Positions 324 to 63,980 of a stretch of DNA of 64,000 bases are shown piece after piece. Made by a program: the position numbers and the translations under genes. The notes under the pieces are model-generated. The model saw only the letters and a list, made by a program, of their open reading frames with translations. It was not told the DNA's origin and searched no databases. Position 1 is the first letter of the stretch, and every line of letters starts with the position of its first letter. Origin of the DNA: a virus (taxonomy: Duplodnaviria > Caudoviricetes); IMG/VR virus record IMGVR_UViG_3300028603_000017, positions 32,001-96,000 of that record, one strand, 5' to 3'.

Positions 324-369
324 CATTATACACTCCAGAGTCCTACTATAGGACTCTGGAGCTATGTCG
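324..369. terminator. CATA/TATG-family hairpin (copy 1)
   Basis: 13-bp stem ctccagagtccta/taggactctggag, then ctatgtcg and a T-run. 328-369 is identical to 63939-63980. Confidence 0.8.
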
Positions 370-421
370 TCATTTTTTTATTAATCATTCAAATACTTTA
401 GACGACTAAAAGAATATACCA

Positions 422-1360
422 ATGGATTTTAAAGAAGAAACCACACATTTACATCATATAACCAGAAGCAGTAAAACCATATTGTTTTATAAAAAGCTCA
501 ATATCTTTAGCTTCCTATCAGCATATGTGTTTTACGAATGGTTTAAAAAGCACGGTATGTTAGAACAATTGGAATTGATACCTGTTGTTCATCCTAAAGA
601 TATTTATATCCATAGTTCAGTATTTAAAAATAATCACGTTATTTTTATTGATATCGACATCACTAAGAAAACAATCAAACACTTTATTGTTCACTCTAAG
701 ACAATGGAGTTCTTTGATAACAAAAGATCGACTGAAATTATCAAAGAATATTTAGTTAACTCTATCTTACCAAAAGAGTTATTAGCCAAAGCTAATTTTT
801 ATAATCATAGCAAAACCAGTGTTTTGTATGTAGTCTATAGGGCTATTACAAAAGATGATTACCCTAAAGTCTTTACAGATTTAGAGGAATTCTCTTACGA
901 TAAGTTTACCAATAAGGTAACAGATTACAATTTAAGACTACCAGCTATCATTGGTAATAATTTTGATATTGTTGATAACTTCGTAAGAAATGATGCTCAT
1001 CTGGCTTATAAAGCAACACTCAATAGTCGAATTGTGGTAGGTTATCTAACAGATCAAGCATTAACGACTGTTTATAATAATTCATACGCTTGTGATTATA
1101 ATAATTATAAAGCAGCTGTTATCAATAACACTATATCAAACTCGATGTTCATAATAGCGGTTATGCTATCTGTCGAACATATAGATTTTGCTATTTGCTA
1201 CGAAAAGATAGGTAATATATTTAACTACAAGATCGTCACCAGAAATAAGAATATTGATTTAATTAAACTATTTAAAAAATATGAACCTATAGGTTATACA
1301 GATTGTGTTTGGTTCAGTACCAATAATCAGATTTTATCTAAATACAAAATATCAGTTTAA
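422..1360 (+). CDS. Degenerate DHH-family phosphoesterase-like protein
   Basis: Length and spacing of the ILFY, SAYVF, VIFID, EFFDNK and AAVIN blocks resemble phage DHH/DHHA1 proteins, but the DxDG and DHH residues are absent. Confidence 0.4.
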   Translation: MDFKEETTHLHHITRSSKTILFYKKLNIFSFLSAYVFYEWFKKHGMLEQLELIPVVHPKDIYIHSSVFKNNHVIFIDIDITKKTIKHFIVHSKTMEFFDNKRSTEIIKEYLVNSILPKELLAKANFYNHSKTSVLYVVYRAITKDDYPKVFTDLEEFSYDKFTNKVTDYNLRLPAIIGNNFDIVDNFVRNDAHLAYKATLNSRIVVGYLTDQALTTVYNNSYACDYNNYKAAVINNTISNSMFIIAVMLSVEHIDFAICYEKIGNIFNYKIVTRNKNIDLIKLFKKYEPIGYTDCVWFSTNNQILSKYKISV

Positions 1361-1361
1361 T

Positions 1362-1496
1362 ATGAGAAAAAGAAAGAAACAATTAATGAGACGAATTAGA
1401 TTTCAATATCTAGAAGCTAAAGAATACGAACAACAAATGCTTCGAGCACTTGAACAAGGTTTTATTTCAGGAAGAGCTAAACAATGTCAGAATTAA
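1362..1496 (+). CDS. Small basic hypothetical protein (44 aa)
   Basis: ATG directly after the upstream stop; overlaps the next start; MRKRKKQLMRRIRF... Confidence 0.45.
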   Translation: MRKRKKQLMRRIRFQYLEAKEYEQQMLRALEQGFISGRAKQCQN

Positions 1497-3585: not shown

Positions 3586-3587
3586 TT

Positions 3588-3980: not shown

Positions 3981-3985
3981 ATAAA

Positions 3986-4026
3986 CATAGATACAGGACT
4001 GGTTTCATTACCAGTCCTGTATTATG
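3986..4026. terminator. CATA/TATG-family hairpin (copy 2)
   Basis: cata-g-atacaggactggt/accagtcctgtat-tatg, just after the HAD stop. Confidence 0.75.
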
Positions 4027-4086
4027 CAGTTATATATTTTTTTACTATGGTCTCCAATATTTTGAATTATTTATATTTTGTTTTGA

Positions 4087-4416
4087 ATGACAGAAGAATT
4101 AATACCTAATCAGCTACAAGCTAATGTTCTCATTAATGATTTAAAGAATGTCGTAAAGACTCGCTTACTGGGTATTAATGAATGCATTAGACAACTTAGA
4201 AAGAATGAAAGAGCTATTACAGATTACAAAGATAAACTTAATCTGTATAAACTGGCTAGAGCTCAAACCAATACTGTTTTAAATAAGTTAGTTAATCTCC
4301 TGAATAAAGGAGAATTTACTCTAACAGAATTTAAACAATTAAAACAAGAATTTATAGAAATGACTATTCCAGATATAGAAAAACAAAGGACTGATGATGA
4401 GTTTGAGCACAGTTAA
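4087..4416 (+). CDS. Hypothetical coiled-coil protein
   Basis: 109-aa ORF in an operon-like run. Confidence 0.6.
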   Translation: MTEELIPNQLQANVLINDLKNVVKTRLLGINECIRQLRKNERAITDYKDKLNLYKLARAQTNTVLNKLVNLLNKGEFTLTEFKQLKQEFIEMTIPDIEKQRTDDEFEHS

Positions 4417-4969: not shown

Positions 4970-4982
4970 AGGAAAGACAATC

Positions 4983-5698: not shown

Positions 5699-5739
5699 CA
5701 TATACTCCAGGTAGGACTAACCTACCTGGAGCTATGTTG
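5699..5739. terminator. CATA/TATG-family hairpin (copy 3), between convergent genes
   Basis: cata-ta-ctccaggtagg/cctacctggag-c-tatgttg. Confidence 0.8.
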
Positions 5740-6444
5740 TCAAGATAATGGAAATGGTTTATTAGGCACAATAAAATTAGATATATATCTAGCTATTCCT
5801 CTGGTAATTCTAAATTGCTGCATATAGCCAGAATACGGATAATAATTACCGCTATCATACATAGTTCTACCTATCTGTAAGGGCATAGCGGGGTTTGCTG
5901 AATAGTTAGTTGGCATGCCAGCCACCATAACGCCGTTTACAAATAGCCTTAAATAATCATTATGATTAGTAGCAGCAATATGTTGCCATTGGTCTGCCAC
6001 TATCACACTATCGCTATTTAAACCAGAAATGCCAATAAATGAAAAACCAATTCTACCGTTAAGGCCAGCATTTATTGCGAATAACCAACCATTAACTCCA
6101 CCATTACGATTAGTAGCTATAGTCATTCTGTCTACTATATTGCTAGGTTTTATAAAACATTCTACTGTAAAGTCAGTATATGCTAATCCATAATCGCTTT
6201 CATAAACACTAACTAATGAGTTAGCGTAATGATTAAACAATATTGAATTAGAACCAAATTTAGGATCTACACTACTTGAAGTAGTATTATTGAAACTAAA
6301 TATTTTACCTTTAGCGTCATTAAAATTATTATTTGTTGGAATAAAATCTGTTCCTGGAATTAAACAAATCACTTGATCCCAATAGGGATCATGATCAAGA
6401 CTCAGTGCCTCCCTCCCTCGTCTCAATAATTTAGATATTCCCAT
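5740..6444 (-). CDS. LamG-like (concanavalin A-type) jelly-roll protein
   Basis: DPYWDQV, DFTVECFIKP, QWQHIAAT, LFVNG, LQIG and GYMQQFRITRGIARY..NF..P..PFP motifs. Confidence 0.85.
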   Translation of the reverse strand: MGISKLLRRGREALSLDHDPYWDQVICLIPGTDFIPTNNNFNDAKGKIFSFNNTTSSSVDPKFGSNSILFNHYANSLVSVYESDYGLAYTDFTVECFIKPSNIVDRMTIATNRNGGVNGWLFAINAGLNGRIGFSFIGISGLNSDSVIVADQWQHIAATNHNDYLRLFVNGVMVAGMPTNYSANPAMPLQIGRTMYDSGNYYPYSGYMQQFRITRGIARYISNFIVPNKPFPLS

Positions 6445-6486
6445 ATTGTTGTCCGTATAGTAAATAAAGCTATAGAATTTGATTAA

Positions 6487-6537
6487 GACATATTACCTAA
6501 TAGACAGGGATTACACCTGTCTATTAGGTAAATGTCG
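6487..6537. terminator. CATA/TATG-family hairpin (copy 4)
   Basis: gacat-a-ttacctaatagacagg/cctgtctattaggtaa-atgtcg, downstream of the polymerase gene. Confidence 0.8.
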
Positions 6538-12311: not shown

Positions 12312-12420
12312 TTACGTTACTGATTCAACTGAAAATATATATAGATTTATACAAGAATATAACATAAGACAGTTTTCTGCTGTTTTAGACTTTGTTAAAG
12401 CATCTATGCGACAACATTAA
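12298..12420 (+). pseudogene. Orphan C-terminal fragment of an internal head-protein paralogue
   Basis: Startless frame (TSNSNYVTDSTENIYRFIQEYNIRQFSAVLDFVKASMRQH*) ends like the AMISYAGQSIKQYQ* and AATEYVGQSLKLY ends of nearby paralogues. Confidence 0.55.
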
Positions 12421-12485
12421 ATAAATACATCATACACTCTAGATAGGGTTAAACCCTATCTAGAGTGTATGATGTATTTATTTAA
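12417..12485. terminator. Perfect 69-bp palindrome (CATA/TATG family, copy 5)
   Basis: 34-bp arms with a 1-nt centre; contains the TAA stops of both convergent frames. Confidence 0.85.
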
Positions 12486-15433
12486 GCACCTACAAATTGA
12501 TCACCCAAATTGTGTTCAATGAAATTGATGTTGATATCCTCAACTACAATTCTATCACCGTTAGGTAGAGCAGTTAGCTTCTTACCAATAGAGAGTCTAT
12601 CACCCTCATTAAGAATCGTGATAGTATTGATGTTAGCAGATCCACCTAATCCAGTAATAGCTACACTAATTACATCTTCACCATAAATGGATCTTAGGTG
12701 TGTAATAATAGCGCTATTGCTAACAACGTTATTGACTAAGAGATTATCTATTTCTCTGATAGTAGAATCATTCAAGTATTTTCTGAGTTCAGCATTTTCA
12801 TATACTGACTTTTTGACATACAGATGAACATTAAAGACTTGATTGGCTTGAATGTTCATCACTTGTGATTGATCAGCTAAAACCTTAATCGTGCCTAGAT
12901 TGGTCTTAGGATACAAATAGATTCTGGTCTGATCTAATGATCTTTGATTAAAATCACCTAGTTCATTAACTACCCAGTTGACAATAGCGTCCGTCATTTG
13001 TTTTCTATAAGTAGCAGCAGAGCTATCGTTAGCTAACAAATAAACACCGTCAATAAAGAATAGTTCCATTTGCCTTAGGATACTGGATCCACCCAAAGGT
13101 ACAGGTTTACCATTTTCATCTAAAACAACATCACCAGCTTTATGTTTGTATTCTATTAAACCATCTTGACCAATAACAGGCTCACCCTTGTGGTACAAGA
13201 TATTGTAAGTGATTTGACCTAATTCATTAATTTTAAAAATAGAACCAGTCTCAGGATCTGTTTCATAGATATCGTTTTCATATACCTTAGGCTCATCCAT
13301 GGTATAAGTCTGGTATTGAGCAGATTGTAATACAGATCTAGATCTTTTCCACAGATAATCTAAACTGGTACCAAACTTAGTCAATAGAGTCTCATGGTTT
13401 AACCCTACTGCTGTACTGGGAGCTGTTACTCTATTGATCACATCATCAATAGCTGTCGTAGACCAATTAGGATCTAAGGATTCATCTAGATAATAAACAA
13501 TATCAAACCTTTGATTCAAAAGAGCGTATACGCTTCTGTCATCAGTATCGAAATAGTTAAAATTTAGAAACTGTAAATTATGATCAGCGTCAATATCAAA
13601 ATTTGATTGTAAATCAAATTCAAAGATAATCTCATTATCAGCAGCAGCAATAGCGGTGCCATTAATAGAGCATCTAACACCATTTTCAGGTATAAAAGAT
13701 ATCTGTGCGCCTACTTTACTCATAGGTAAAGCTTTCAGAGCATCATTGCTCTTTATCTTTGTTCTGATCTTAAAACCAGTATCAACTCTGATAATGTCAA
13801 AAGCTGACGTATTGATCTCTAAACCCGTACTGTCATTTTGATCCACGAAAGTCAAAGACTCAATCTTAGGATCATCTAAATGATAAGCTCTTAATTCAAA
13901 TTCATTACTGCTAGAGTCTAGTACGTAATAAAATGGATTATAAAGATACTTAACACCACTAACAGCTTTGACAAAAGCTTCATTGGATAAAACCATCAAA
14001 GATGATTTATCCTGAAGAGACAGTAAATTAATAATACCGTTTTCATTAACGAATAGAGTATTAGACGGAATAGTCAGTCTATTGCCGTTATTTCTAATGA
14101 AAGGATAATTCGTTAATGCATCCATAGATGAGATAAAGGTTTCAATACTAGAGTTACCAGCAGTAATGAGCTTTTCATCAAATGGGTCAGGCATTTGCCT
14201 GGTAGCTAAATAGATACGGTTAGTCACCACATCTACATTCTTAACAATAGAGTAGTTATTATTGCTTAAAAATGACTCTAGCTGTACATTGGTAATAGGT
14301 AGCTGTTGTGGACCAATGCTATTTTTAATGACTCTATCTCTGAGCTCATCAAATGTTAAAGCATTTCTGCCACCATCAATCATTTCAGCAGAATAAGCAA
14401 ATATCGTACGAATAGCTGACAGTGGTGCAGTAAATGCATTCATCTCAGATCTATCAATAGCGTACCATTCAGTGACAAAACTCTCTGGTGTATAAGTCGC
14501 TAAAGATATAACCAATCTACCTTTGGTATCGTAAATATCTGTTCTGATAGAACCGGTGATTTGATTGGTGGTAAAATAAACCTGAGGAATATAGACATTC
14601 AAAGTCTTTTCAGAGCTATTGACCTTCAGTACTGCTGTAGGTGTTTTGTTGTCATAAACCTGATCAGTGTGAGTCGTCTTTATTTCTTTCCACTTATTAG
14701 CAGTAGAGTTAGACTTATTCCATACTCTGGCATAATAAAATTCGTCTGTATAACTGTACGTTCTATTAAACCCACGAGTTACAGTAGTTTCTTCTGTGAA
14801 GGTTTCAATCTTGAATTGTTCAGCATGTACTTCAAGATATAACCATTCATCATATCCAGCAGGATACAGATCAGATGCTATTTTTCTAACATCCCACTTG
14901 ATAATGTTAGTCGTTAGTTCTTTTAAGGGATTGGTTTGGTCTGTATTGTAAACGATTTGTAGACCACCGTGCTTTAGCTCTCGTATCTCTACAGGGTAGA
15001 GCATTGAAAAAACAATATCGTTAACTGTAAAGAAAGTATTTCTAGGAATAACCAGTTTTCTGATACCTGTAGAAATATCAGTTACCATATTCTCTAGTAT
15101 TTCTGCTTTTCTAGCTACAATGGTAAACTTAGTACTAGCAGGTACTGCAAACCTATCGATAAAGTCTTCATCACTCATGTGAATATAGATATCGTCTTCA
15201 GTTTGAGCTACAGCAGGATATTGTCTTCTGGTATTGACTTCATTTTGTACCATAAATGCTGCTGTATGGACAGCAGCATTTTCTAAACTGAATACAAAAG
15301 GATTGGTAGCATCAACGAGTTCTACTTCACCATTTAATATAGCGCCCAAGTGTTCAGTAACAACTTGCTGAATGGCACTAGGGTTATATCTAAATCTTAA
15401 TATATTGTCTTTTAAACTATTGACAGTACTCAC
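12482..15433 (-). CDS. Large tail/baseplate structural protein (phiKZ gp87-like)
   Basis: 983 aa; NPSAIQ...DATNPFVF.LE, RRQYP.VAQT.DD.Y.HMSD and GGRNALTFDELRDRVI (baseplate-wedge-like); synteny. Confidence 0.7.
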   Translation of the reverse strand: MSTVNSLKDNILRFRYNPSAIQQVVTEHLGAILNGEVELVDATNPFVFSLENAAVHTAAFMVQNEVNTRRQYPAVAQTEDDIYIHMSDEDFIDRFAVPASTKFTIVARKAEILENMVTDISTGIRKLVIPRNTFFTVNDIVFSMLYPVEIRELKHGGLQIVYNTDQTNPLKELTTNIIKWDVRKIASDLYPAGYDEWLYLEVHAEQFKIETFTEETTVTRGFNRTYSYTDEFYYARVWNKSNSTANKWKEIKTTHTDQVYDNKTPTAVLKVNSSEKTLNVYIPQVYFTTNQITGSIRTDIYDTKGRLVISLATYTPESFVTEWYAIDRSEMNAFTAPLSAIRTIFAYSAEMIDGGRNALTFDELRDRVIKNSIGPQQLPITNVQLESFLSNNNYSIVKNVDVVTNRIYLATRQMPDPFDEKLITAGNSSIETFISSMDALTNYPFIRNNGNRLTIPSNTLFVNENGIINLLSLQDKSSLMVLSNEAFVKAVSGVKYLYNPFYYVLDSSSNEFELRAYHLDDPKIESLTFVDQNDSTGLEINTSAFDIIRVDTGFKIRTKIKSNDALKALPMSKVGAQISFIPENGVRCSINGTAIAAADNEIIFEFDLQSNFDIDADHNLQFLNFNYFDTDDRSVYALLNQRFDIVYYLDESLDPNWSTTAIDDVINRVTAPSTAVGLNHETLLTKFGTSLDYLWKRSRSVLQSAQYQTYTMDEPKVYENDIYETDPETGSIFKINELGQITYNILYHKGEPVIGQDGLIEYKHKAGDVVLDENGKPVPLGGSSILRQMELFFIDGVYLLANDSSAATYRKQMTDAIVNWVVNELGDFNQRSLDQTRIYLYPKTNLGTIKVLADQSQVMNIQANQVFNVHLYVKKSVYENAELRKYLNDSTIREIDNLLVNNVVSNSAIITHLRSIYGEDVISVAITGLGGSANINTITILNEGDRLSIGKKLTALPNGDRIVVEDININFIEHNLGDQFVGA

Positions 15434-17713: not shown

Positions 17714-17767
17714 CAACATACTCCGAGTATAGATAGCTCAACAGCTATCTATACTCGGATGATATCG
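17714..17767. terminator. CATA/TATG-family hairpin (copy 6)
   Basis: caacata-c-17-bp stem tccgagtatagatagct/agctatctatactcgga, then a T-rich tract. Confidence 0.8.
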
Positions 17768-17802
17768 CTATTTTTTCTTTTGTTTTATTGTTCATTATAA
17801 TC

Positions 17803-21072: not shown

Positions 21073-22479
21073 ATGAGTTTTGCTAAACGATTTGGTATTG
21101 TAGCTGCCATGGAAGAGCTGCAAGAACAAGAAGCTGCTGCTGGTGCTGCAGCGCCTGAAGCTACTGGTGACGATACTCCTAGTGAAGAAGTCGATATTCC
21201 TGTTGCTGAGGACACTGTTGAAACGGCTGCTGCTGAAGTTGATATGGCTGAAAGCGATGTTGATGCAGCTGATGAAACCATTGCTGATGCTGAAAGTGAT
21301 CTAAGTACCCTTGATGGTATTGCTGATAAGCTAGAAGCTACTGAAGAAAACGGCGGTATCGACGCAGGCTCTGCTGCTATTGTTGAAGTGGCTGTTGAGC
21401 ATCTGTATCAAAAGCTGGGTGTTATTCGCGCTAAGGCTATGCCTGCATTAGAATCTTTTGGTGCCGATAGCTCACGCCTGAAGGCTACCCGCATTGCTGT
21501 CGAAGACATTCGTGAAAATGCCAAGAAGATTTGGGACGCTATTTTGCGTATGGTGGAAAAGGCTAAAGAATTTATCACCAAGTTCTTTAAAGCTATCTTC
21601 ACTGCCACTGGTCGTATTAAGGAACGTGCTCTAAAGCTCAAGGAAGCTGCTAGTAAAATTCAAGGCGAAGCTTCTAGCCAAACCATTGAAAACGCTGGTT
21701 TTGCTCCTGCTCTAGCGGTTGGCAGCTCTGTTGATTATAGTAAAGTAAATGCGTTCTTCTCGCACGGTGGTTTTTACAAAGCTGAACTAGATAAGTATGC
21801 TGATTTAGTTAACAACACTGAAAAGCTAGGTAAGGTTGCTGATGACTTTAAGAATGCTGTAGATTATTCTTTTGATCCTGCTTTGATCACCAGTATTGGT
21901 TTCAAGCCCAGCACTGAGTTTGGTGAAGCCGCCGAAGGCTTTACTTACTACAGTCTGTCTGACCTACCTGCTGTTGGCGGTAAGACGATTGCTGCATATG
22001 CTGTTAGTAAGGCTGTATCTGGTCAAGAAGCTCTAAAAGCTGTTTCACAATTCAAGGTAGAAGTCAAGGAAGTTGCAGATACATCAGAAGTTAACTCAGC
22101 TCCTACGCTGAAGATTTCTGAAGCACAAGCTTTGCTTGATTACATCATCAAAATCTGTGACACCACAGCTGAACTCAACGATGTTGTTAAGCAAATTGAT
22201 TCAACTTCAGACCTTATTATTCGTAGCGTTAAGAGCGCGCGTAATAAGGATATGATTGAGACTCTTAAGGCTGCTGATCGGGATGGTGCCAAAAGCGCTA
22301 GTGAAGATGTAGTTACTAAGTATGATGTTGCTAAAGATTTGATTAAAGCTTTACGCGCACAAAATGCTTTTATGACTAAACTCATTTCAGCTCCTGTGCG
22401 TCTGAATTTCAGCGCTGCTAGAGCAGCTACTGAATACGTAGGTCAATCACTGAAACTCTATAGTGCTAAAGCTGAATAA
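21073..22479 (+). CDS. phiKZ-like internal head (inner body) protein, gp93-like
   Basis: AME, MPALESFG and RIAVEDI..AKKIWDAI propeptide; highly expressed codon style. Confidence 0.85.
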   Translation: MSFAKRFGIVAAMEELQEQEAAAGAAAPEATGDDTPSEEVDIPVAEDTVETAAAEVDMAESDVDAADETIADAESDLSTLDGIADKLEATEENGGIDAGSAAIVEVAVEHLYQKLGVIRAKAMPALESFGADSSRLKATRIAVEDIRENAKKIWDAILRMVEKAKEFITKFFKAIFTATGRIKERALKLKEAASKIQGEASSQTIENAGFAPALAVGSSVDYSKVNAFFSHGGFYKAELDKYADLVNNTEKLGKVADDFKNAVDYSFDPALITSIGFKPSTEFGEAAEGFTYYSLSDLPAVGGKTIAAYAVSKAVSGQEALKAVSQFKVEVKEVADTSEVNSAPTLKISEAQALLDYIIKICDTTAELNDVVKQIDSTSDLIIRSVKSARNKDMIETLKAADRDGAKSASEDVVTKYDVAKDLIKALRAQNAFMTKLISAPVRLNFSAARAATEYVGQSLKLYSAKAE

Positions 22480-22518: not shown

Positions 22519-22560
22519 TAGATGAGGAGGAGGTAATGCCTCCTCCTCATCTATTTATGT
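22519..22560. terminator. Hairpin with 3' TATG (copy 7, divergent)
   Basis: 15-bp stem tagatgaggaggagg/cctcctcctcatcta, then tttatgt. Confidence 0.75.
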
Positions 22561-23947: not shown

Positions 23948-23997
23948 AACATAGTGCTAGATAGAGACCGTGTGGTCTCTATCTAGCATGTATGTTG
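23948..23997. terminator. CATA/TATG-family hairpin (copy 8)
   Basis: aacata-g-tgctagatagagacc/ggtctctatctagca-tg-tatgttg. Confidence 0.8.
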
Positions 23998-24030: not shown

Positions 24031-24222
24031 GTGAGTTTCTCCAAAAGATTTAAATTAGATTTTGGTTTATAGGGAAGAATAAAGTCAAACAATCGTCTTG
24101 TTAAGAACAACATTTTTGCCAATGTAAATACAAGCGATATAGACAAAGAAGTAATAGAATACAGAACAATTATAAATTCTAACTTAGAACAGTTAGCAAA
24201 ATACTACATTGAGACTAAATAG
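24031..24222 (+). pseudogene. Collapsed internal head-protein paralogue (leader plus C-end) with an internal amber stop
   Basis: RBS aggga then GTG; MSFSKRFKLDFGL*(TAG 24070-72)GRIK...LEQLAKYYIETK*. The leader matches MSFAKRF of 21073 and 31867. Confidence 0.6.
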
Positions 24223-24301
24223 TCTCAATGTAGTATTTTTGACGCTATAAATACAGAATCTAAAATTATGTGTTATCGGATCACTCTATAAAGGCAAGAG
24301 C

Positions 24302-29609: not shown

Positions 29610-29649
29610 CATACTCCCAGTAGGTATTAACCTACTGGGAGCTATGCCG
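29610..29649. terminator. CATA/TATG-family hairpin (copy 9)
   Basis: cata-ctcccagtaggt/acctactgggag-c-tatgccg. Confidence 0.8.
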
Positions 29650-31578: not shown

Positions 31579-31642
31579 ACATATATACAGCAGGAGTTCC
31601 TTTGAACTCCTGCTGTGTTATATGAATTATCTTTTTTTTTTG
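31579..31642 (+). terminator. CATA/TATG-family hairpin (copy 10) with T-tract, closing the early island
   Basis: acatata-t-acagcaggagttc/gaactcctgctgt-gt-tatatg, then a T10 run. Confidence 0.8.
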
Positions 31643-31866: not shown

Positions 31867-33093
31867 ATGAGTTTTGCTAAACGATTTAATCTAGCTGCCG
31901 CTTTAGAACAAGTTACAGCTGAGTGTGATCCTGCTGAAGTCTTTGAAGATAACATTGATGCAGGTCTGGATGATCTAGAAGAACTACAAGAAAGCGTTGA
32001 GTTTTCTGTAGATGAAATAGGTAAAGGTCTAGAAGGTATTGCTGACCTAATTGGTCTATCCAATAAGCTCCAAAACAAAGAAGGTTGTGGTGTTGCTATT
32101 GAGAGCTATAGTGATATGGCCAATATTGCTTATGCTTCTATTCTAAAGCGTATTGGTTTAGAAGACGGTGAAATCTTTGACAAAGATGATCCTACTGGTA
32201 AAGATGCTAAAGATATTACTCCTAAGCCTAGTGGTAAGATCAAGCAAATGGTAGAAAAGATCATTGAGATCGTTAAGCGTATTTGGGAAAAAGCTAAAGA
32301 ATATTTTAAGAAAGCTTTTGACTATGTCAGCAATAGAATCAATAAAACGATTAAGTATTTAGAAGATCTTAATGATTCTGCAAAGATTGCTGTTTTAAAA
32401 GCTGCTAGTATTCCCAATATTGAGATTGAGAATCCTGCTTTCTTTACTGATAAGAAATTAATTACAGTCGGTGATGTATTTGAATCGACATACCTAAGTG
32501 ATTATGGTAAGAATTCAGATAAAATTGGTAAACATTTTGAAGCTTATGCATTTGCCAAATCTGTGTACACCCCTGATCAAGCTCAAAATCTCTTAAATAG
32601 GCTAAGTGGTAAAAGAGAAAAAGACGGACTTTATGTTACTCCGGAAGGTTATATTCATATTGAAGAACCATCCGGAGACGATGGTGTAACTAAAATTAGT
32701 TTCTCAAAAAACAAAGAAGAGCAGCCAGTAGCTAAACAAACTCTTGGAATGATTGCTAAATTTCCAGCATCTATTGATATTACATTAGATATCTTTAACT
32801 CGATTCGTAAACGTTATAATGATTTTTATAAAGAAGCTGAGAGAAAAATAAATGAAGAAATTCCTGACTATTTAGCTCTTCTTCAAAGCAATATTAAGAA
32901 TTCTAAAAATGAAGAGGATGCACAAAGATCTATAGACGTAGCTAGACGTATTAAACAAAACTTAACTTATCTAACGTCTATCAGAAATATGCATAACTCT
33001 TATACAGGTGATTTGGTATTCATGATTAACTACTATGTTAGTTTTATTAAAAAAGCTGCGGATGTTAATCAAGCCAAAAAAGCCACAGCTTAA
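31867..33093 (+). CDS. Dispersed phiKZ-like internal head protein paralogue
   Basis: True start MSFAKRFNLAAALE, with 24 bp identical to the start of 21073; VAIES site; IIEIVKRIWEKAKEYF amphipathic helix. Confidence 0.8.
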   Translation: MSFAKRFNLAAALEQVTAECDPAEVFEDNIDAGLDDLEELQESVEFSVDEIGKGLEGIADLIGLSNKLQNKEGCGVAIESYSDMANIAYASILKRIGLEDGEIFDKDDPTGKDAKDITPKPSGKIKQMVEKIIEIVKRIWEKAKEYFKKAFDYVSNRINKTIKYLEDLNDSAKIAVLKAASIPNIEIENPAFFTDKKLITVGDVFESTYLSDYGKNSDKIGKHFEAYAFAKSVYTPDQAQNLLNRLSGKREKDGLYVTPEGYIHIEEPSGDDGVTKISFSKNKEEQPVAKQTLGMIAKFPASIDITLDIFNSIRKRYNDFYKEAERKINEEIPDYLALLQSNIKNSKNEEDAQRSIDVARRIKQNLTYLTSIRNMHNSYTGDLVFMINYYVSFIKKAADVNQAKKATA

Positions 33094-33099: not shown

Positions 33100-33145
33100 C
33101 GACATACACTCCAGGCAGATTAAACCTGCCTGGAGTGTATGTTGC
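33100..33145. terminator. CATA/TATG-family hairpin (copy 11), between convergent genes
   Basis: 17-bp stem acatacactccaggcag/ctgcctggagtgtatgt. Confidence 0.8.
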
Positions 33146-34370: not shown

Positions 34371-34640
34371 ATGATCTCTATACTTCTCTACCATATCCAC
34401 AGTCTTACCCTTGGTGGAAATACATCAAATACACCGTCTTATAATAATAGAGTCTGTATTGGTGGTCCTAATGCTGCTGTGCAATCTTATATCCCTGCCT
34501 CATTAGCTACTTTAATGATAGGTACCAACAAGGTATCTACAGAAAACGAAATAAATAAACTATTTGGTTATTATGCTCATTATTATGCTTTAACTGATCT
34601 ATTACCTAGCTATCATCCTTATAAAACTACTTCACCATAA
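34371..34640 (+). pseudogene. Orphan C-terminal fragment of a LamG/lectin-like virion domain
   Basis: Ends NKLFGYYAHYYALTDLLPSYHPYKTTSP, matching the recalled K.EGYLAHKWGL...LP..HPYK..AP terminus; only 89 aa. Confidence 0.5.
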
Positions 34641-34642: not shown

Positions 34643-34684
34643 CCATATATTCCTAGGTGGATTAATCCACCTAGGAATATATGG
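34643..34684. terminator. Perfect 42-bp palindrome (CATA/TATG family, copy 12)
   Basis: ccatatattcctaggtggatt|aatccacctaggaatatatgg, between convergent frames. Confidence 0.85.
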
Positions 34685-34694
34685 CATCAGTTAT

Positions 34695-36227: not shown

Positions 36228-36312
36228 TAGCTTAAATCTAATCGTTTTTAATTTGTTTAACTACCTATGAGGTGCAAAGGATTATTGTAGATATTAAAAA
36301 ATTATTATTCAA

Positions 36313-36345
36313 TAGTATGATAAAATTTTACAATTAGTATGATAA
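36313..36345 (+). promoter_or_regulatory. Tandem TAGTATGATAA, candidate late promoter for the capsid operon
   Basis: 11-mer at 36313 and 36335; contains the TATG core reported for phiKZ late promoters. Confidence 0.35.
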
Positions 36346-36361
36346 CTAATATCTCACAGAG

Positions 36362-36976
36362 GTGTGTGTGAACAACAACATTATTTTCGTTCCATATTGG
36401 ATTGAGAAAGCTCTTAGCAGGAATCAACATACCCTAAGAGATATCATTGATTATTCTGTTTTGAGAAGGTATATTTCTCAAAACGACTTATCTGGATTAC
36501 TTGGTTTTCAACAAGTACCAGAAATCAGCAAGTTAACTAGTGGCAATTCCTATAACAAAAAGGATGCTGCCATTAGTGAAGCTGTTGGTTCACATTCTCT
36601 GCTTAGCAGATGGGAAGAAAGCGCAGGACAGCGCTATAAGGAAGAACTGGATTCAACCGTTGTCCCAATGTCATATAGCTTAGAGAAAGAAACGCTGGAG
36701 AGATTAAAATCTAATCTTGATAGCGCCGATATCACGGGACCTACTTTTAAGGTTATTGATATTGATAAGAATAGCATGGTGGTTGTTTTATATGAGGGTT
36801 TTCTTGAGGAAATTAAAAAGCCTGAAGTAAAATACTCTTTGGTAAAGCAGCTTTTGGTGTTATCTTATGTATACTGCAAAGTCGAACAAGTCGCTAAGAC
36901 ACCTTTATTTAGCACTTATGTCGATTTACTCCAGCTATCTACGGCAGGAGCTAGTGCAGTTGCGACAGTAGAATAA
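36362..36976 (+). CDS. Capsid-associated protein (phiKZ gp119-like)
   Basis: Lies between the helicase and MCP, as in phiKZ. Confidence 0.6.
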   Translation: MCVNNNIIFVPYWIEKALSRNQHTLRDIIDYSVLRRYISQNDLSGLLGFQQVPEISKLTSGNSYNKKDAAISEAVGSHSLLSRWEESAGQRYKEELDSTVVPMSYSLEKETLERLKSNLDSADITGPTFKVIDIDKNSMVVVLYEGFLEEIKKPEVKYSLVKQLLVLSYVYCKVEQVAKTPLFSTYVDLLQLSTAGASAVATVE

Positions 36977-39242: not shown

Positions 39243-39282
39243 TCATACTGCCAGGAGCTTATAGCTCCTGGCAGTTATGTCG
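39243..39282. terminator. CATA/TATG-family hairpin (copy 13), after MCP
   Basis: cat-actgccaggagct/agctcctggcagt-tatgtcg. Confidence 0.8.
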
Positions 39283-40707: not shown

Positions 40708-42318
40708 GTGGATATAGCCTTATCTGAGTTAATTAAAGCTGATACACCTCAAATTAATCCCCACATAGCCAATGGACTGGCCACAGTTCATATGGACTAT
40801 GTAGAGGAATATATTGATACTGTATTTAAAGCTGTATCTAAAGATTTCCCTCCAGAGCTAAAATATGTTGGTTGTAAGAGAGCGACTCCTTTAGAAGAGT
40901 ACGCTTTTATTACCAGCAAAAAGAATAACCGCAGAACATTTGATATTGCCAGAAGTGATGTTTATCTGATGAATTATCAGTTTACATTCAATGGACAACC
41001 TCTACCATCGAGACCTCTTTTCTTGCCATTCGTTAATGACGCAGGATTTATTAATCTTGGTGGATCTAGGTTTGCTATATCGCCTGTTCTTAGCGATAAA
41101 GTCATCTCACTAGGCACAAATAATATCTTTATTCGCTTGCTTAGGGATAAGCTCACTTTCGAGCGAGTACCGCATAACGTAGTGATTGATGGCAAAAGAG
41201 AATTGGTCTCTGTTGTTTGGTCTTTGATTTATCACAAACCTAACAACGCAGACAAAGCTAAACCTATTGTAAAAGCAAACTGTGCATTGATGCACTATCT
41301 CTTTTGCAAATATGGATTTACACATACCTTTAATCATTACGGTAATTGTCATCCTGTTGTAGGCACTGACGATATTACTGTGGAGAACTATCCTCAAAAG
41401 GATTGGGTAATTGTGCAATCGAGCACAATTAAGCCTAAAGGAAACCAAGATCTACCTTACCAGCCTACAGATATAAAGCTAGCTATCAGGAAAAATGAAT
41501 TCACGAGTTTGGTCAAGCATATGTGTGCAGGCTTTTACTACGTGTTAGACCATTTCCCACAGCGCTTTATTCCCAGTTATCTAGACAACACCAATCTATG
41601 GAAAGTCTTAATGGGTTATATTGTCTTTGCTGGCAATATTGGTGAGGGTAAACTACTACAAGACATCAGTGAGCACTTTGACAGTCTTGACGAATATATT
41701 GATGCTATCATGGTCAATAAACTAAAAGAGATTGGTTATCCTTGTTCAAATATTTACGATTTGTTCAATGTGGTTATCACTAACTTTTCTGATTGGTTAT
41801 TGAAAGCAAAAGACAATATCAACAGCATGTATGACAAAGAGCTCAGTATTTTGTACTATGTCTTGATGCCTATTACCTCCGCTATTGTTAAGCTACACTT
41901 CAAACTCAAGAAAGCTGCTAGTAAAAAGACTTTGAAAGAATCTGATATTCTTTCAAATATGGCAGCTATTTTGACACCAGGTCTAATATTCCAGATCACC
42001 AGACAACACAATGGTGTTAGCACTGTGAGCTATTCAGGGGACAATAAGTTCTTTGAAATCACTTCTATGCTAGTGCCGCAAAAGACCAGTGGGAAATCAG
42101 GCGCTCAAAACGACAGAGCTGCCATTAATGATCCTGCCAGGCGTTTGCATATCAGTGTGGCTGAGGTAGGTGCTTATCTAGCATTTACTAAGAGCGATCC
42201 GTCTGGCAGGAGCCAGATCAATCCTCATATACGACTGGACGCCTCTGGCGGTATTCTAAGAGATCCTGAAAAAGCAGCTTTGCTTGATGAAGTTCAATCT
42301 ATGATCAAGCGAGACTAA
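40708..42318 (+). CDS. Non-virion RNA polymerase beta subunit, N-terminal part (phiKZ gp123-like)
   Basis: P..N..IANG.A, LFLPFV..AG.I.L.G....ISPVLSDKVIS, LLRDKLTFER and LH.S.AEVG.Y...K.DP.GR..INP motifs. Confidence 0.85.
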   Translation: MDIALSELIKADTPQINPHIANGLATVHMDYVEEYIDTVFKAVSKDFPPELKYVGCKRATPLEEYAFITSKKNNRRTFDIARSDVYLMNYQFTFNGQPLPSRPLFLPFVNDAGFINLGGSRFAISPVLSDKVISLGTNNIFIRLLRDKLTFERVPHNVVIDGKRELVSVVWSLIYHKPNNADKAKPIVKANCALMHYLFCKYGFTHTFNHYGNCHPVVGTDDITVENYPQKDWVIVQSSTIKPKGNQDLPYQPTDIKLAIRKNEFTSLVKHMCAGFYYVLDHFPQRFIPSYLDNTNLWKVLMGYIVFAGNIGEGKLLQDISEHFDSLDEYIDAIMVNKLKEIGYPCSNIYDLFNVVITNFSDWLLKAKDNINSMYDKELSILYYVLMPITSAIVKLHFKLKKAASKKTLKESDILSNMAAILTPGLIFQITRQHNGVSTVSYSGDNKFFEITSMLVPQKTSGKSGAQNDRAAINDPARRLHISVAEVGAYLAFTKSDPSGRSQINPHIRLDASGGILRDPEKAALLDEVQSMIKRD

Positions 42319-44858: not shown

Positions 44859-44920
44859 GCAACATAGCTCCTAGTGACCTCATCAGGTCACTAGGAGTAC
44901 TATGTCTTTTTTTTTTTTGT
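44859..44920. terminator. CATA/TATG-family hairpin (copy 14) with T-tract
   Basis: gcaacatag-ctcctagtgacct/aggtcactaggag-ta-ctatgtc, then a T-run; between convergent genes. Confidence 0.85.
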
Positions 44921-48696: not shown

Positions 48697-48744
48697 CATA
48701 GGTCTAGATGCTAGGGAACTCCCTAGCATCTAGACTGTATGTCG
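48695..48744. terminator. CATA/TATG-family hairpin (copy 15), between convergent genes
   Basis: gacata-g-gtctagatgctaggga/tccctagcatctagac-tg-tatgtcg. Confidence 0.8.
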
Positions 48745-51840: not shown

Positions 51841-51886
51841 GCAACATACACTCCAGGTAGGGATTACCCTACCTGGAGCTATGCTG
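51841..51886. terminator. CATA/TATG-family hairpin (copy 16)
   Basis: gcaacata-ca-ctccaggtaggg/ccctacctggag-c-tatgctg. Confidence 0.8.
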
Positions 51887-54959: not shown

Positions 54960-57197
54960 TTATTTTGCGGATACTGAACCAACATTGCTGCGGCATTCTC
55001 GATGTTGAATAATTATTGTATTTGATGTTGTTCCACCACCAGTAACAGAACCTTGCCAATTACCGATTGGTAAACCTGCTGTCTGGAATCCTCCAAGACC
55101 AAAAGACATACACTCACCACTAGGATCACCAGCAATAACAGAACCGGACCCATTGCCGTTTCCACCAATACCAATAGTTGTTTTGCTTTTGAGTACTTTA
55201 TGAGAACCATTTAGATACTTATAACTAAACTCTACTTCAAAATTACCTGGAGCAGCACCACTGACGTTAATAGTAATAATAGACGGCGTTCCAGGGTAAA
55301 CTACTGATTTACTGGCCGATATACTAATAGTAGGGTGATACACCGGTGGAGGTGGAGGCGGAGGAGGCGGAGGTGGTGGTTCAGGAGATGGAGGAGGTGG
55401 AGGAGGCGGAGGTGGAGGAGGCGGAGGAGGCGGAGGTGGAGGAGGCGGAGGCGGAGGTGGAGGAATAGATGCCTCCTCAGGTTTATACACCACCGTATTA
55501 TGTATCGATGTTTTATTACCTTTGAAGGTAAATATCGATTGAATAACACCTTCTTGTACACCTACTGCTAAATTACCCATAAAAGAACCGTACGCATCTA
55601 GCGTGTATTGTCTTGTTACAGGCGTATTAGCTCCTAGTTGTGTCCTCATTGTAAATGTAGATCTAGGCTCACCATTATTGACTGCCCAACCTACATTAGC
55701 TCCAATAGGGAAATTCCCATCCAAACCCGATACCGTCGGAGAATAAACAACTTCTGTTGACTTACCTGCTGGTGAATACACCACAACAGCATTGTCAATA
55801 ATAAACTTATTCCTACTCTCAGGTGTTGTAGGAGAATCTGGTCCATTTTGCAAGAAATGTACTCTAGCAAAATAAAGCAATGTATCAAAAGTAATATAAC
55901 TTCTGACACTCATAGGACCATCTAGTTCAGCTTGAGTAACGACAGGTAAATTTTCTACCTTATCTAACCCAACTTGACTTTTAATCAACTCGTGAGGATT
56001 ACCTCTGTCGTTAATATGGGCTTGTAGCGTAGCTGATATTTGAGCTATCTTGGTGTTGGTTGTAAACTTCTTCCAGATTAAATCAATACCTGCTATCTCT
56101 TCAGTTAAAGTACCCCAATAGGTATCTAGTGTATTTTGATCAATTAAGAAAACATCACTGTCGTTGCTATCAATACTGTTAGATAGCTTCATCACCACAG
56201 TTTCATTACTGAAAGAAAATCCATCAGGATAATAATTATTGCTAAAAACAGTTTCTGTATCAACAGCTTGGTTTCTGCTGATAGTATTGTATCTAGATAA
56301 ATTACCTGATCTCAGTATTTCACGATCACTAGGTATACCGTATTTACCTACAGCTAAATCAATACCTGTTAAATCTCGTCTAATGAGATTTTGATAAATA
56401 GCTTTCTTAAATCCAATCAGAGTTTCAATAAGAATATATTTATTCTCTACAGTCTGATTGGCTGTAAAAGATGGAGAGCCTAATTCTAAACCTTCTTTTT
56501 CTAAAGCATATTTTAGGTTAGCTATTTTATCTAAACCAATATATTCTTTTGTAAATATAGATTTAAAATCTTCTAATTTATCAGGCATGTTAGCATCTAA
56601 GTATGCTTCCATGTCTATTTGTATTTGAATTAAAGAAGTATCAATAAAAGCTAGTAGTTCTCTAAACGTTGTATAAGAGCCTACTCGAATAGCATTTTCA
56701 ACTCTATTTAATCCAGATACAATATATTCTAATCCATAGATTTCATCTGCATCATGCAAATGATGAGCAACAGGAGAAAACTCTTTGGGTTTATCCCTGA
56801 TCTCATCCCAAGGCACAGGTGTAAAAGGTGGTACTTTATCAATATAAGCTTCAATCAAATTGCTGGAGCTATATGTATCAGATCCACCTAATACTTGATA
56901 AGTTAAAGAGATAGGTAGTTTATCTAAATTTGTAATAAGAATAATAGCTGTACAAATTTCTTTACCTACCATCAAAGAAGCTTCTTGATTAAATTCAATT
57001 GGAATATAATCAACATTTCTCTCTAAGATATCGCCGTCAACATTCTTTACGATAAGAGATTCTGTAAAAAAGTTTTTAAATTCAGGTATAACAATGCCAG
57101 TAGATAAGTCGACATTGTCGTGAATTTCATCTTCAATTAAATTATCTGGATCAACACCAGTTCTATCTAATTGAAATTTTTGAACAATGGTAGCCAC
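54960..57197 (-). CDS. Tail fibre paralogue 3 with polyproline linker
   Basis: FQLDRTGVDPDNLIEDEIH anchor, YQVLGG and NPH...K.QVGL; 38 Pro in 40 aa. Confidence 0.8.
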   Translation of the reverse strand: MATIVQKFQLDRTGVDPDNLIEDEIHDNVDLSTGIVIPEFKNFFTESLIVKNVDGDILERNVDYIPIEFNQEASLMVGKEICTAIILITNLDKLPISLTYQVLGGSDTYSSSNLIEAYIDKVPPFTPVPWDEIRDKPKEFSPVAHHLHDADEIYGLEYIVSGLNRVENAIRVGSYTTFRELLAFIDTSLIQIQIDMEAYLDANMPDKLEDFKSIFTKEYIGLDKIANLKYALEKEGLELGSPSFTANQTVENKYILIETLIGFKKAIYQNLIRRDLTGIDLAVGKYGIPSDREILRSGNLSRYNTISRNQAVDTETVFSNNYYPDGFSFSNETVVMKLSNSIDSNDSDVFLIDQNTLDTYWGTLTEEIAGIDLIWKKFTTNTKIAQISATLQAHINDRGNPHELIKSQVGLDKVENLPVVTQAELDGPMSVRSYITFDTLLYFARVHFLQNGPDSPTTPESRNKFIIDNAVVVYSPAGKSTEVVYSPTVSGLDGNFPIGANVGWAVNNGEPRSTFTMRTQLGANTPVTRQYTLDAYGSFMGNLAVGVQEGVIQSIFTFKGNKTSIHNTVVYKPEEASIPPPPPPPPPPPPPPPPPPPPPPPPPSPEPPPPPPPPPPPPVYHPTISISASKSVVYPGTPSIITINVSGAAPGNFEVEFSYKYLNGSHKVLKSKTTIGIGGNGNGSGSVIAGDPSGECMSFGLGGFQTAGLPIGNWQGSVTGGGTTSNTIIIQHRECRSNVGSVSAK
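55344..55463 (-). repeat. CCN codon microsatellite encoding P25-S-P-E-P12
   Basis: Run of agg/tgg/cgg triplets on the + strand. Confidence 0.9.
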
Positions 57198-57255: not shown

Positions 57256-57300
57256 GCAACATAGCTCCAGGTAGGGTAATCCCTACCTGGAGCGTATGAC
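57256..57300. terminator. CATA/TATG-family hairpin (copy 17; inverted twin of copy 16)
   Basis: gcaacatag-ctccaggtaggg-taat-ccctacctggag-cg-tatgac. Confidence 0.8.
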
Positions 57301-57327
57301 TTTAAGTAATGAAATTAAACAATTTCT

Positions 57328-62529: not shown

Positions 62530-62689
62530 GCGTTAACTCCTTCAAACTAAATCAGTATGAGTCATGAGTTCATGATAATAGTAAAAATATTGGATGCACT
62601 AGCATTTCAATAATTCTTAATTTGCTGGCTATAATATTTGAAATGGTGGCTTAGCGTGTTCATATTAAATTTGCAAAAGGATAAATATC

Positions 62690-63934
62690 GTGTATACGGT
62701 CGTTAAGTCTTACGGTATTGCCAAAGGAGCTAATCAGCGCTGGCAAGAGCTCAATTTAGGCGCTATGCCAGTTAATGAAATATTTCAGCTCTATAGAAAA
62801 GTATATTTAGAATTAACAGCAGCTTTTTTAGAAGAAAATATCTATGTAGATCTGGAAGTGTTCAGACTATTATATATAAACTTTGAAGGAACTCTCTCAG
62901 ATTTACTGGATGAAAATGGTAATGAAACCATACCTACTATTGATGAGATCCCTAACCTAGAAGTTAAAAGAGCATATTTTGCTGACGCTATATATAGTGG
63001 TTATGAAGTTGAATTATCTAACCAATCTCCTGTCGGTGAGAAATCAGTCATAGATCTTAAAATCAGTAGATCTAGAACCGATATGACAGAAGTCTATGAA
63101 CACTGCTTATTTACTGTCAATGGTTTTTTCCATATGAGTGATAGAGATAATGAATTTGTCTATATCAACCATGGTGGTAACACCATGCTCAAAAGCAGAG
63201 ATAACCATTTGGGTATTTGGTCTTGGCTCAATGTCGGTAAAATTAATCAAGTAAAGATTACTGACGATATGCTATTTAAGCAAAATGATGAGTCTAGCTT
63301 TAGCGATAGAGTTTATATAAAGATAAATCAAGATACTGAAAACAAAACAGTATTATTATTTGCTGGTGGTTATTTAGTTAGACCTGAGCCAGAGATATTC
63401 TTTCCAGTAGGCAACGATACCTGGTGTATCAATATGGGTAGATTGCCTTTATTGCGCAGGTATTTTGAATCTAGACAATATATAGACTATAGCTTTTTAG
63501 AATTAGACAGCTCTACTGTCAATGATAGTCTAATTAGTTTAAATCAATTTTACAGTGATGAAAAACTAAGAAAATACTTAACCCTACCTCAATCGTTTAT
63601 TGCTATCATTGATCAACCTGATGTTTATTTTGAAGAACACTTTGTTAGATCTTCTCCTGCACCCGGTATGCTGGTGTCTTACTATGAACCTATATTTCCT
63701 ATCTTTGTAGGTGCAGGTCGATCTCCCAGTTATTGGAAAAGACATGAAAATGGTCAATGGTCTATTACAGTAGCAGATTCATTCAGACAAAATAGAATGT
63801 TTGAAACTGCTCAAATAGGCACTATTGATTACGCTAATGATTCCAATCAAACCATTCGTCCAGCATTTTTAAGTAAAGCTTATCTATTAGAAGCTGGTAT
63901 TGATTTTGAATTAGAAGAGCCACAAACTCCTTAA
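62690..63934 (+). CDS. Virion structural (tail/baseplate) protein
   Basis: CLFTVNGFFH, LFAGGYL and YLTLPQSF motifs, typical of the gene divergent from this fibre family in phiKZ-like phages. Confidence 0.65.
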   Translation: MYTVVKSYGIAKGANQRWQELNLGAMPVNEIFQLYRKVYLELTAAFLEENIYVDLEVFRLLYINFEGTLSDLLDENGNETIPTIDEIPNLEVKRAYFADAIYSGYEVELSNQSPVGEKSVIDLKISRSRTDMTEVYEHCLFTVNGFFHMSDRDNEFVYINHGGNTMLKSRDNHLGIWSWLNVGKINQVKITDDMLFKQNDESSFSDRVYIKINQDTENKTVLLFAGGYLVRPEPEIFFPVGNDTWCINMGRLPLLRRYFESRQYIDYSFLELDSSTVNDSLISLNQFYSDEKLRKYLTLPQSFIAIIDQPDVYFEEHFVRSSPAPGMLVSYYEPIFPIFVGAGRSPSYWKRHENGQWSITVADSFRQNRMFETAQIGTIDYANDSNQTIRPAFLSKAYLLEAGIDFELEEPQTP

Positions 63935-63937
63935 CGG

Positions 63938-63980
63938 CATACACTCCAGAGTCCTACTATAGGACTCTGGAGCTATGTCG
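63938..63980. terminator. CATA/TATG-family hairpin (copy 18)
   Basis: 42 bp identical to 328-369. Confidence 0.8.

Follow-up and report, generated by a model that had tools for sequence, protein, structure and literature searches.

Hairpins with CATA/TATG arms, probably transcription terminators of the phiKZ type, in an uncultured jumbo phage

Repeated hairpins with CATA and TATG arms occur in an uncultured phage, of which we analysed a stretch of 64,000 nucleotides (the window; positions 32,001 to 96,000 of IMG/VR record IMGVR_UViG_3300028603_000017) together with the whole 261-kb genome. The repeats themselves are confirmed. We regard them, with a probability of about 85%, as transcription terminators that serve the multisubunit RNA polymerases of the phage itself and often work in both directions, a reading that draws on the homology of their design with mapped terminators. 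The family is largely ordinary: it represents this phage's version of the published hairpin-plus-TTATGYYGT stop signal of phiKZ and 201phi2-1, not a new kind of element. Judged by its genes, the phage is a phiKZ-like (Chimalliviridae) nucleus-forming jumbo phage with multisubunit RNA polymerases of its own. It encodes a phiKZ-type capsid protein (phrog_3231, PF25620) and a homologue of GP123, the beta-like subunit of the nvRNAP (31% identity, E 2e-94), and its order of helicase, gp119 and capsid genes is phiKZ-like.

RNA folding recovered all 18 hairpins that the initial annotation had placed in the window, with minimum free energies from -23 to -46 kcal/mol, and that list turned out to be complete for family members there; one extra intergenic hairpin (24198-24239) has neither CATA nor TATG arms. 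Both arms are present in 14 of the 18 copies, while those at 324, 6487, 17714 and 22519 have one good arm each; the poor tail or arm of 4 of 18 copies counts against the terminator reading. The family does extend over the genome, with about 70 intergenic TATG-flanked hairpins. There are 112 perfect stems of at least 10 bp genome-wide, and 46 hairpins have both CATA and TATG flanks, where five Markov-simulated genomes gave 0-1. A covariance model (CM) trained on 15 window copies detected 39 places in the genome at E<=0.01. No Rfam family matched in the window, and a generic terminator scan recovered 3 of the 6 elements in 28-48 kb.

According to the structure counts, each of the 11 apical pairs covaries and pairing there reaches 99.3%; the four pairs between CATA and TATG hardly vary, and TATG begins 0-2 nt beyond the end of the apical stem. 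Wobble is nearly absent: at tandem junctions we counted 650 Watson-Crick pairs, 3 G-T and 2 A-C. Such a scarcity of G-U pairs is unusual for a purely RNA-level signal and counts against the terminator reading. The stem had been described as freely varying, which does not hold, as about two thirds of stems start with CTCC and several copies do not differ at all over 40-52 nt that include the loop; these identical copies are dispersed at unrelated loci. There is no purine/pyrimidine asymmetry between the arms. The statement that many copies lack a U-tract is correct, with at least five T in 8 nt in just 21 of 78 sense-oriented copies (about 27%).

The 3' tail of these 78 copies has a clear profile: TATG, then T/Y, Y (94%), G (64%), Y (83%) and T. 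A strong hairpin (-15 kcal/mol or stronger) precedes 49 of 58 intergenic TATGYYG sites but only 5 of 113 genic ones, and the density of TATGYYGY is eight-fold higher in intergenic DNA. At tandem junctions we counted 16 copies with YYG on the sense strand and 8 with it on the antisense strand, the copy at 17714 being an exception with a good tail on the antisense strand only. The CM score is also higher on the + than on the - strand at 21 of 24 '++' junctions, a comparison biased by training on + strand copies, and our conclusion on sense bias therefore rests on the motif counts. A mini-ORF starting at the ATG of TATG was considered and rejected (median open length 8 codons, against 11 at other intergenic ATGs).

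To summarize the placement, TATG-hairpins occupy 19 of 22 convergent, 0 of 22 divergent, 41 of 208 '++' and 5 of 25 '--' junctions in the whole genome. For most of the 39 places detected with the CM, the start of the element falls between -7 and +6 nt relative to a stop codon, and many tandem copies lie 40-300 nt upstream of the next gene. The junction counts and stop-codon distances bear out the earlier description of elements that follow stop codons and sit at convergent junctions.

Among the convergent copies of the window, putative bidirectional terminators include 5699..5739 at the 3' end of the LamG gene (TATGTTG on +, TATGCTG on -), 33103..33144 (TATGTTG on +, TATGTCG on -; CM 57.0 and 60.2 bits) and 63938..63980 (TATGTCG on +, TATGCCG on -), the last with the same stem and loop as the copy at 324. 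The largest copy, 12417..12482, is a 33-bp perfect palindrome with an internal CATA/TATG core and A/T-rich outer arms (-45.9 kcal/mol; CM 59.9 and 59.8 bits on the two strands). The bidirectional hairpin 34644..34686, identical in strains L067 and L073, has the CATA/TATG core with YYG on neither strand. The candidate terminators 44863..44907 and 48697..48744 carry TATGTC plus T12 on + with TATGTTG on -, and TATGTCG on +, respectively.

Among the tandem '++' copies, 324..369 has a degenerate 5' arm (CATTATA) and the sense tail TATGTCG (-23.0 kcal/mol; CM 57.4 bits on +, 37.3 on -), and 3986..4029 reads CATA...TATGCAG with a T-run further downstream (-24.0 kcal/mol; CM 54.4 bits on +). The hairpin 17716..17768 has a sense tail without TATG and an antisense TATGTTG (-27.8 kcal/mol), and in 22519..22560 the 5' CATA is absent and the sense tail is TTTATGTT (-29.1 kcal/mol). 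The probable terminators 23950..23997 (CM 48.0 bits on +, 37.2 on -), 29610..29649 and 31580..31627 carry the tails TATGTTG, TATGCCG and TATGAAT followed by a T10 run. The probable terminator 39244..39282 lies directly 3' of the major capsid gene and has the sense tail TATGTCG. As for the tandem '--' junctions, 6488..6537, between the DNA polymerase gene and the LamG gene, has AATG in place of TATG in its 3' arm (-27.2 kcal/mol); 51845..51886, between fibre-like genes, has TATGTTG on the sense (-) strand; and 57260..57301, of which an identical 39-nt copy lies at genome position 205569, has TATGTTG on the sense (-) and TATGACT on the antisense (+) strand.

The same design is found in relatives. 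The phiKZ genome contains GCATAA-stem-TTATGTC hairpins, one of them directly 3' of the capsid gene and orthologous to the window copy at 39244. For 38 distinct relatives with capsid proteins roughly 40-60% identical and 33-60% GC, we took the strongest post-capsid hairpin, and it turned out to have TATG behind it in 30, of which 27 have TATGYYG; the CM built from this window alone also matched distant relatives. The published phiKZ terminator motif, derived from 61 ONT-cappable-seq terminators, is BCCYCCCCHWWDGGGRRGGBYTTATKYYGT (Putzeys et al. 2024, PMC10914365), and 'motif A' of 201phi2-1 (59 terminators) resembles it (PMC11512511). The tail profile observed here equals the TATKYYGT part. The initial annotation had cited the phiKZ stem-loop literature but missed that this exact hairpin-TTATKYYGT motif was already published.

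With the phiKZ motif and 201phi2-1 motif A or A/B, the elements share a stem-loop immediately before TATG-YYG-T, a location after genes with some copies bidirectional between convergent genes, the post-capsid position, and membership of a phage family that has RNA polymerases of its own; phiKZ also has the 5' CATA(A) partner arm. The stems here differ in being AT-richer and mostly of the CTCCAGG type, not CCYCCCC/GGGRRGG, and the extra T before TATG is usually missing; the elements here are known from sequence alone. In phiKZ and 201phi2-1 the motif marks RNA 3' ends, and copies that were cloned stop transcription in vivo (PMC10914365, PMC11512511). Some of the published ends could, however, stem from exonucleases that trim the RNA as far as a stable hairpin and not from true termination. 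The minor new points are the between-strain loop inversions, the almost complete lack of wobble pairs and the dispersed identical copies.

The element has a strictly Watson-Crick stem of 11-19 bp that lies only a few bases from the stop codon, and directly behind it comes the fixed tail TATG-Y-Y-G-Y-T, which stands in place of the U-tract and, in the proposed mechanism, may tell the phage polymerase in a sequence-specific manner to pause or release. The 5' CATA can pair with UAUG, and the hairpin could thus extend into the tail; the RNA 3' end is expected about 6-8 nt past the apical stem, within YYG. Because the element is palindromic, it could also stop transcription from the opposite side, which would explain its presence at nearly all convergent junctions with a good tail on both strands. 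A stable post-gene hairpin is shared with canonical bacterial intrinsic (rho-independent) terminators, and a palindrome whose complementary flanks serve both directions is shared with bidirectional ones. Unlike these, most copies have the TATGYYGT tail instead of a U-tract, and the stems are longer and almost without wobble or mismatch.

That the elements delimit gene cassettes, as claimed earlier, needs no more than terminators at the ends of transcription units: accessory genes probably look 'bracketed' only because each forms a unit of its own. The elements also offer a ready map of transcription-unit ends for annotating an uncultured nucleus-forming jumbo phage, and such terminators are now gathered as synthetic-biology parts.

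As to what reads the tail, recognition by conserved phage machinery, as suggested from a conserved tail around variable stems, is reasonable, the more so as the TTATGCCGT-type tail is kept across relatives of 33-60% GC. Conservation of TTATG-YYG-T over this range and over about 40-60% capsid identity is an argument that the RNA polymerases of chimalliviruses, or else a conserved partner, recognise a specific stop sequence that replaces the U-tract. Of the proposal that these are phage-RNAP-specific terminators, the terminator part is upheld by the junction logic and by the identity of design with the mapped motif. Eight 201phi2-1 terminators, picked across motifs, terminate in vivo (PMC11512511), and they work with the host RNA polymerase in a reporter, so that polymerase specificity of the tail is unproven. 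Early-promoter-like sites are only a handful, too few to assign the elements to a polymerase class. It is a tentative and rather improbable idea that, during elongation, TATG(YYGT) is recognised by the non-template-strand pocket of the GP123 family that also recognises the late-promoter TATG. Among the published pocket residues, 4 of 9 (S144, K158, S334, Q466) are identical in the homologue at 31% overall identity, as read by hand from the BLASTP alignment. If the idea were true, one recognition module would set both 'start' and 'stop', and polymerase-specific, U-tract-independent pause/release signals would be conserved throughout the Chimalliviridae; a stop-and-rebind variant is a weaker alternative.

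A different possibility, which we consider unlikely, is an RNA-level processing, stability or export signal, in which a nuclease or RNA-binding protein reads the hairpin-TATGYYGT after transcription, for example to protect the 3' end or to send mRNA out of the phage nucleus. In that case the mapped 3' ends would arise by processing, and this could coexist with termination. The bulged two-part stem is loosely like the RNase III sites of phage T7, and a tail kept across genomes of such different GC suggests a protein reader that need not be a polymerase. Chimalliviruses need to export their mRNA, and ChmC is one of the RNA-binding proteins that they encode, yet the eCLIP peaks of ChmC lie near start codons and yielded no motif (PMC11077065). 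Moreover, a reporter placed downstream of 201phi2-1 terminators is insulated by them in uninfected Pseudomonas, where phage factors are absent (PMC11512511), the strict symmetry at convergent junctions fits polymerase traffic from both sides, and the tolerance of wobble pairs expected of RNA-only selection is absent.

A stop-restart module, in which the hairpin terminates and the TATG behind it serves as a late promoter core from which nvRNAP re-initiates into the next gene, is very unlikely. The phiKZ late promoter core consists of the same four bases, with transcription starting at G (PMC4666361), GP123 binds TATG in the non-template strand (PMC12809450), and the spacing of the many tandem copies ahead of the next gene would suit such a role. 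However, the elements are missing from every one of the divergent junctions, which must hold promoters, and a promoter in the good tails on both strands at convergent junctions would give antisense RNA only. In the phiKZ promoter P119L, as in its counterpart here (36228-36367), TATG lacks both a hairpin and YYG; TATGYYG without a hairpin hardly occurs, and in phiKZ late promoters no conserved bases were seen downstream of TATG (PMC4666361). With the 22 divergent regions empty and P119L hairpin-free, the elements are not supported as phiKZ-type late promoters.

The proposal of attC-, REP- or MITE-like sites that mobilise gene cassettes through site-specific recombination was considered with near-identical strains, which were found via exact-protein look-ups only; megablast against phages gave no match, and IMG/VR and metagenome scans returned distant relatives only. 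In its favour are the identical 40-52 nt copies at unrelated loci, the inverted loops, and two accessory units adjoining elements that are polymorphic among 99%-identical strains. Of the gene remnants reported to abut elements, we verified one, the 89-aa ORF at 34371-34640, which retains the C-terminal part of a 292-aa gene intact in other strains. In one strain the LamG deletion has one breakpoint 30 nt right of 5699..5739 and the other inside the 3' arm of 6488..6537, and a strain replacement starts 11 nt past the tail of 33103..33144. Over three events, however, none of the six breakpoints falls in the CATA/TATG core; one coincides with a TATTAGG microhomology inside a 3' arm, three lie at distances of 11-48 nt and two are within genes.

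Searches of the whole genome for a tyrosine recombinase (PF00589; positive controls 14/14), a Y1 HUH transposase (PF01797, RAYT/TnpA) and a serine recombinase (PF00239) found no match, the positive controls for the latter two also being detected. The stems are essentially perfect Watson-Crick, in contrast to the imperfect stem, extrahelical bases and fixed core recombination point of integron attC. With no recombinase found, breakpoints outside the conserved core, a placement logic of transcription direction not expected of such sites, and the same design at orthologous positions in phages of about 40-60% capsid-protein identity, site-specific cassette exchange is very unlikely. The elements may still serve passively as short stretches of homology in ordinary recombination, a role shown for T4-type PeSLs (PMC2839356, PMC4122927). 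These promoter-terminator cassettes are likewise repeated regulatory stem-loops beside variable genes, and an early-promoter-like TCTCAACCATATATTAC motif follows at least four elements here by 24-35 nt. They differ in that most copies here have no adjacent promoter and the strain breakpoints lie outside the shared motif; no evidence of excision was found.

Many Logan contigs end within hairpins, which we treated as an assembler effect at palindromes and not as recombination evidence. Purifying selection among strains was not apparent, as variable positions make up 3.8% of the elements, against 1.75% of other intergenic DNA. The between-strain changes within the elements are loop inversions and compensatory pairs: the loop reads TAG for CTA at 324..369 in strain L076, TAAT for ATTA at 29610..29649 in L103 and GATG for CATC at 44863..44907 in L067, and at 22519..22560 an A-T stem pair is replaced by C-G in L097, L098 and L100.

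We found that the CATA/TATG hairpins form a real family, which is spread over the whole genome far above chance and had been well described in the initial annotation. All 18 named sites (elements, called by their window starts) are strong hairpins with RNA folding energies of -23 to -46 kcal/mol; both the 5' CATA and the 3' TATG are found in 14 of the 18, and elements 324, 6487, 17714 and 22519 have a single good arm. The source contig, a single one of 261,198 bp with 37% GC of which the window covers bases 32001-96000, contains 112 perfect stems of at least 10 bp, and most of the intergenic ones read ...RCRRCATA-stem-loop-stem-TATGYYGY.... Hairpins with both flanks number 46 genome-wide, compared with 0-1 in each of 5 Markov-simulated genomes, while a genome scan gave 70 hairpins in intergenic DNA that are flanked by TATG or CATA. 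A covariance model (R1), built from alignment A1 of 15 window copies, detected 39 places at E<=0.01 in the whole genome. The stem had been said to vary freely, and stems do differ among copies, but about two thirds start with CTCC and several copies at unrelated loci in the genome are identical across 40-52 nt, loop included. Besides, at 24198-24239, between element 23950 and gene 24302, there is a perfect 19-bp hairpin whose loop is 4 nt long; it has no CATA/TATG arms and thus falls outside the family.

To describe the anatomy, we used the 101 model-aligned matches on both strands, in which all 11 apical stem pairs vary on both sides with 99.3% paired, and the four CATA:TATG pairs are close to invariant. 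For 78 sense-oriented copies anchored on TATG, the tail directly 3' of the apical stem reads TATG, T/Y, Y (94%), G (64%), Y (83%) and T. A U-tract-like run exists in just 21 of these 78, so the observation that many hairpins lack a U-tract holds. It turned out that 49 of 58 intergenic TATGYYG sites are preceded by a hairpin with a folding energy of -15 kcal/mol or below, compared with 5 of 113 sites within genes, and the density of TATGYYGY is 8x higher in intergenic DNA. At tandem junctions, YYG is found on the sense strand 16 times versus 8 on the antisense strand. CATA is retained there about as often as TATG (36 and 39), so it seems to pair with UAUG and, where needed, to act as the tail of the opposite strand. 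Wobble is nearly nil in the stem pairs of tandem junctions (650 Watson-Crick, 3 G-T and 2 A-C).

For the location of the elements relative to genes, we made simple gene calls (278 genes in the genome) and classed each intergenic junction by orientation. A TATG-hairpin occupies 19 of 22 convergent junctions, none of the 22 divergent ones, 41 of 208 tandem "++" and 5 of 25 tandem "--" junctions; in the window, the figures are 7 of 7 convergent and 0 of 6 divergent. At most of the 39 places detected by the model, the upstream stop codon is within a few bases of the element start. This agrees with the initial annotation, which placed the hairpins after stop codons and at convergent junctions, and it fits transcription terminators, unlike promoters or orientation-blind repeats.

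The phage itself is related to phiKZ. Among the gene products of the window are a major capsid protein and a virion protein (phrog_3248), both of phiKZ type, as well as a DNA polymerase and fibre-like proteins. The order around the capsid gene is as in phiKZ, with helicase, gp119 and capsid followed by a GP123 homologue. In IMG/VR and metagenome contigs, the capsid protein has matches of roughly 40-60% identity, and with the virion protein (12482-15433) as query no phage record exceeded 40% identity. A 24-nt in-frame indel (745 vs 737 aa) sets one fibre-like gene (54960-57197) apart from its counterpart in ERZ27247376 (L105), a complete assembly that is near-identical elsewhere.

In phiKZ, ONT-cappable-seq revealed 133 termination regions, 61 of which share the motif BCCYCCCCHWWDGGGRRGGBYTTATKYYGT, that is, a stem-loop followed by TTAT-K-YYG-T, and 6 are bidirectional, between convergent genes (PMC10914365). 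In 201phi2-1, motif A of 59 terminators "strongly resembles" the phiKZ motif, motifs A and B together form an elongated hairpin, and 8 terminators were functional in a terminator trap in Pseudomonas chlororaphis (PMC11512511). The phiKZ motif has the same tail as the elements here, and phiKZ hairpins that we inspected directly read GCATAA-GC-rich stem-TTATGTC. For instance, the hairpin after the phiKZ capsid gene (TAA-CAGACATA-stem-TTTATGTTGT) is in the position orthologous to 39244-39282 here, with a wholly different stem. Among 38 distinct relatives (33-60% GC), TATG comes after the strongest post-capsid hairpin in 30 and TATGYYG in 27, the usual tail being TTATGCCGT, and the covariance model trained on the window alone retrieved copies in distant relatives.

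Of the candidates proposed initially, the junction pattern and the tail identity with phiKZ and 201phi2-1 favour a terminator specific to the phage RNA polymerase, and we consider it highly probable (about 85%) that the elements direct 3'-end formation and are homologous to their phiKZ counterparts. They would serve as terminators for the phage's own polymerases, many of them bidirectional. The hairpin would fold directly behind the stop codon, CAUA:UAUG pairing would extend it into the RNA-DNA hybrid, and the TATGYYGT tail would take over the role of the U-tract, with the RNA 3' end expected in the YYG region, 6-8 nt past the apical stem. A bolder idea, which we regard as improbable, is that the TATG pocket of the polymerase reads the tail. 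Gene 40708-42318 is the homologue of GP123, the nvRNAP beta-like subunit of phiKZ (31% identity, E 2e-94), and 4 of 9 published TATG-pocket residues are identical, at an overall identity of 31%.

Besides termination, the elements could possibly have a passive role, by offering short stretches of homology to ordinary recombination. An early-promoter-like motif, (AAAATAA)TCTCAACCATATATTAC, is found outside the window at genome positions 26975, 198137, 205630, 235492 and 246616, and in 4 cases it follows a terminator hairpin at a distance of 24-35 nt, as PeSL-like terminator-promoter modules. These modules and the dispersed identical copies of the elements, which suggest this role, are reminiscent of PeSL cassettes in T4-type phages (PMC2839356, PMC4122927).

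The TATG behind the hairpin might also double as a promoter, since the late promoter core of phiKZ is TATG, with transcription starting at its G (PMC4666361), and GP123 binds it in the non-template strand (PMC12809450). However, no element is in any divergent region, both strands have good tails at convergent junctions, TATG stands without hairpin or YYG in phiKZ P119L and in its counterpart here (36228-36367), and TATGYYG is seldom seen without a hairpin, which together make such stop-restart unlikely.

An attC/REP-like site for cassette exchange fares worst, because tyrosine recombinases, Y1 HUH transposases and serine recombinases were all absent from the genome (search controls were positive) and none of the 6 breakpoints of three strain events in the window falls in the conserved core. 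These three polymorphic events were found among strains 97.6-100% identical to the window, recovered by exact-protein look-ups. The minus-strand LamG-domain gene (5740-6444) is present in this genome and L077, while 5767-6518 is absent from L076, L078 and L079. The deletion lies between two TATTAGG microhomologies and runs from 30 nt after element 5699 into the 3' arm of element 6487, of which a stub is left; its junction is a TATTAGG, so the loss is an illegitimate deletion. Segment 33157-34411 encodes a 385-aa minus-strand gene beside an 89-aa ORF (34371-34640); L067, L097 and L099 have 675 bp instead, completing a plus-strand 292-aa gene of which the ORF is a remnant. The breaks are 11 nt past the tail of element 33103 and inside the 89-aa ORF. 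In the phiKZ_IP-family gene 21073-22479, the 3' two thirds (21709-22470) are divergent in L097, L098 and L100, with one break at 21708 and the other at 22471, 48 nt short of element 22519; identity returns 8 nt ahead of the stop codon. Breaks this close to the elements are to be expected where variable genes form transcription units of their own, each ended by a terminator.

Strain comparison showed at least as much variation in the elements as in the rest of the intergenic DNA. In three independent cases, the loop is exactly inverted between 99%-identical strains: CTA to TAG at 346-348 (element 324), ATTA to TAAT at 29626-29629 (element 29610) and CATC to GATG at 44881-44884 (element 44863). 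Element 22519 has a compensatory stem change from A-T to C-G (22522 with 22550); the inversions and this pair are among the small new points of the analysis. Loop flips are known to mark strand switching or intramolecular recombination inside palindromes, and the inversions suggest such events here, which, with recent copying, may explain the perfect Watson-Crick stems. Logan contigs of the phage often start or stop within hairpins (340-349, 12446-12456 and 34654; loci L068-L072, L077, L079 and L080), most likely by breakage of the de Bruijn graph at perfect palindromes.
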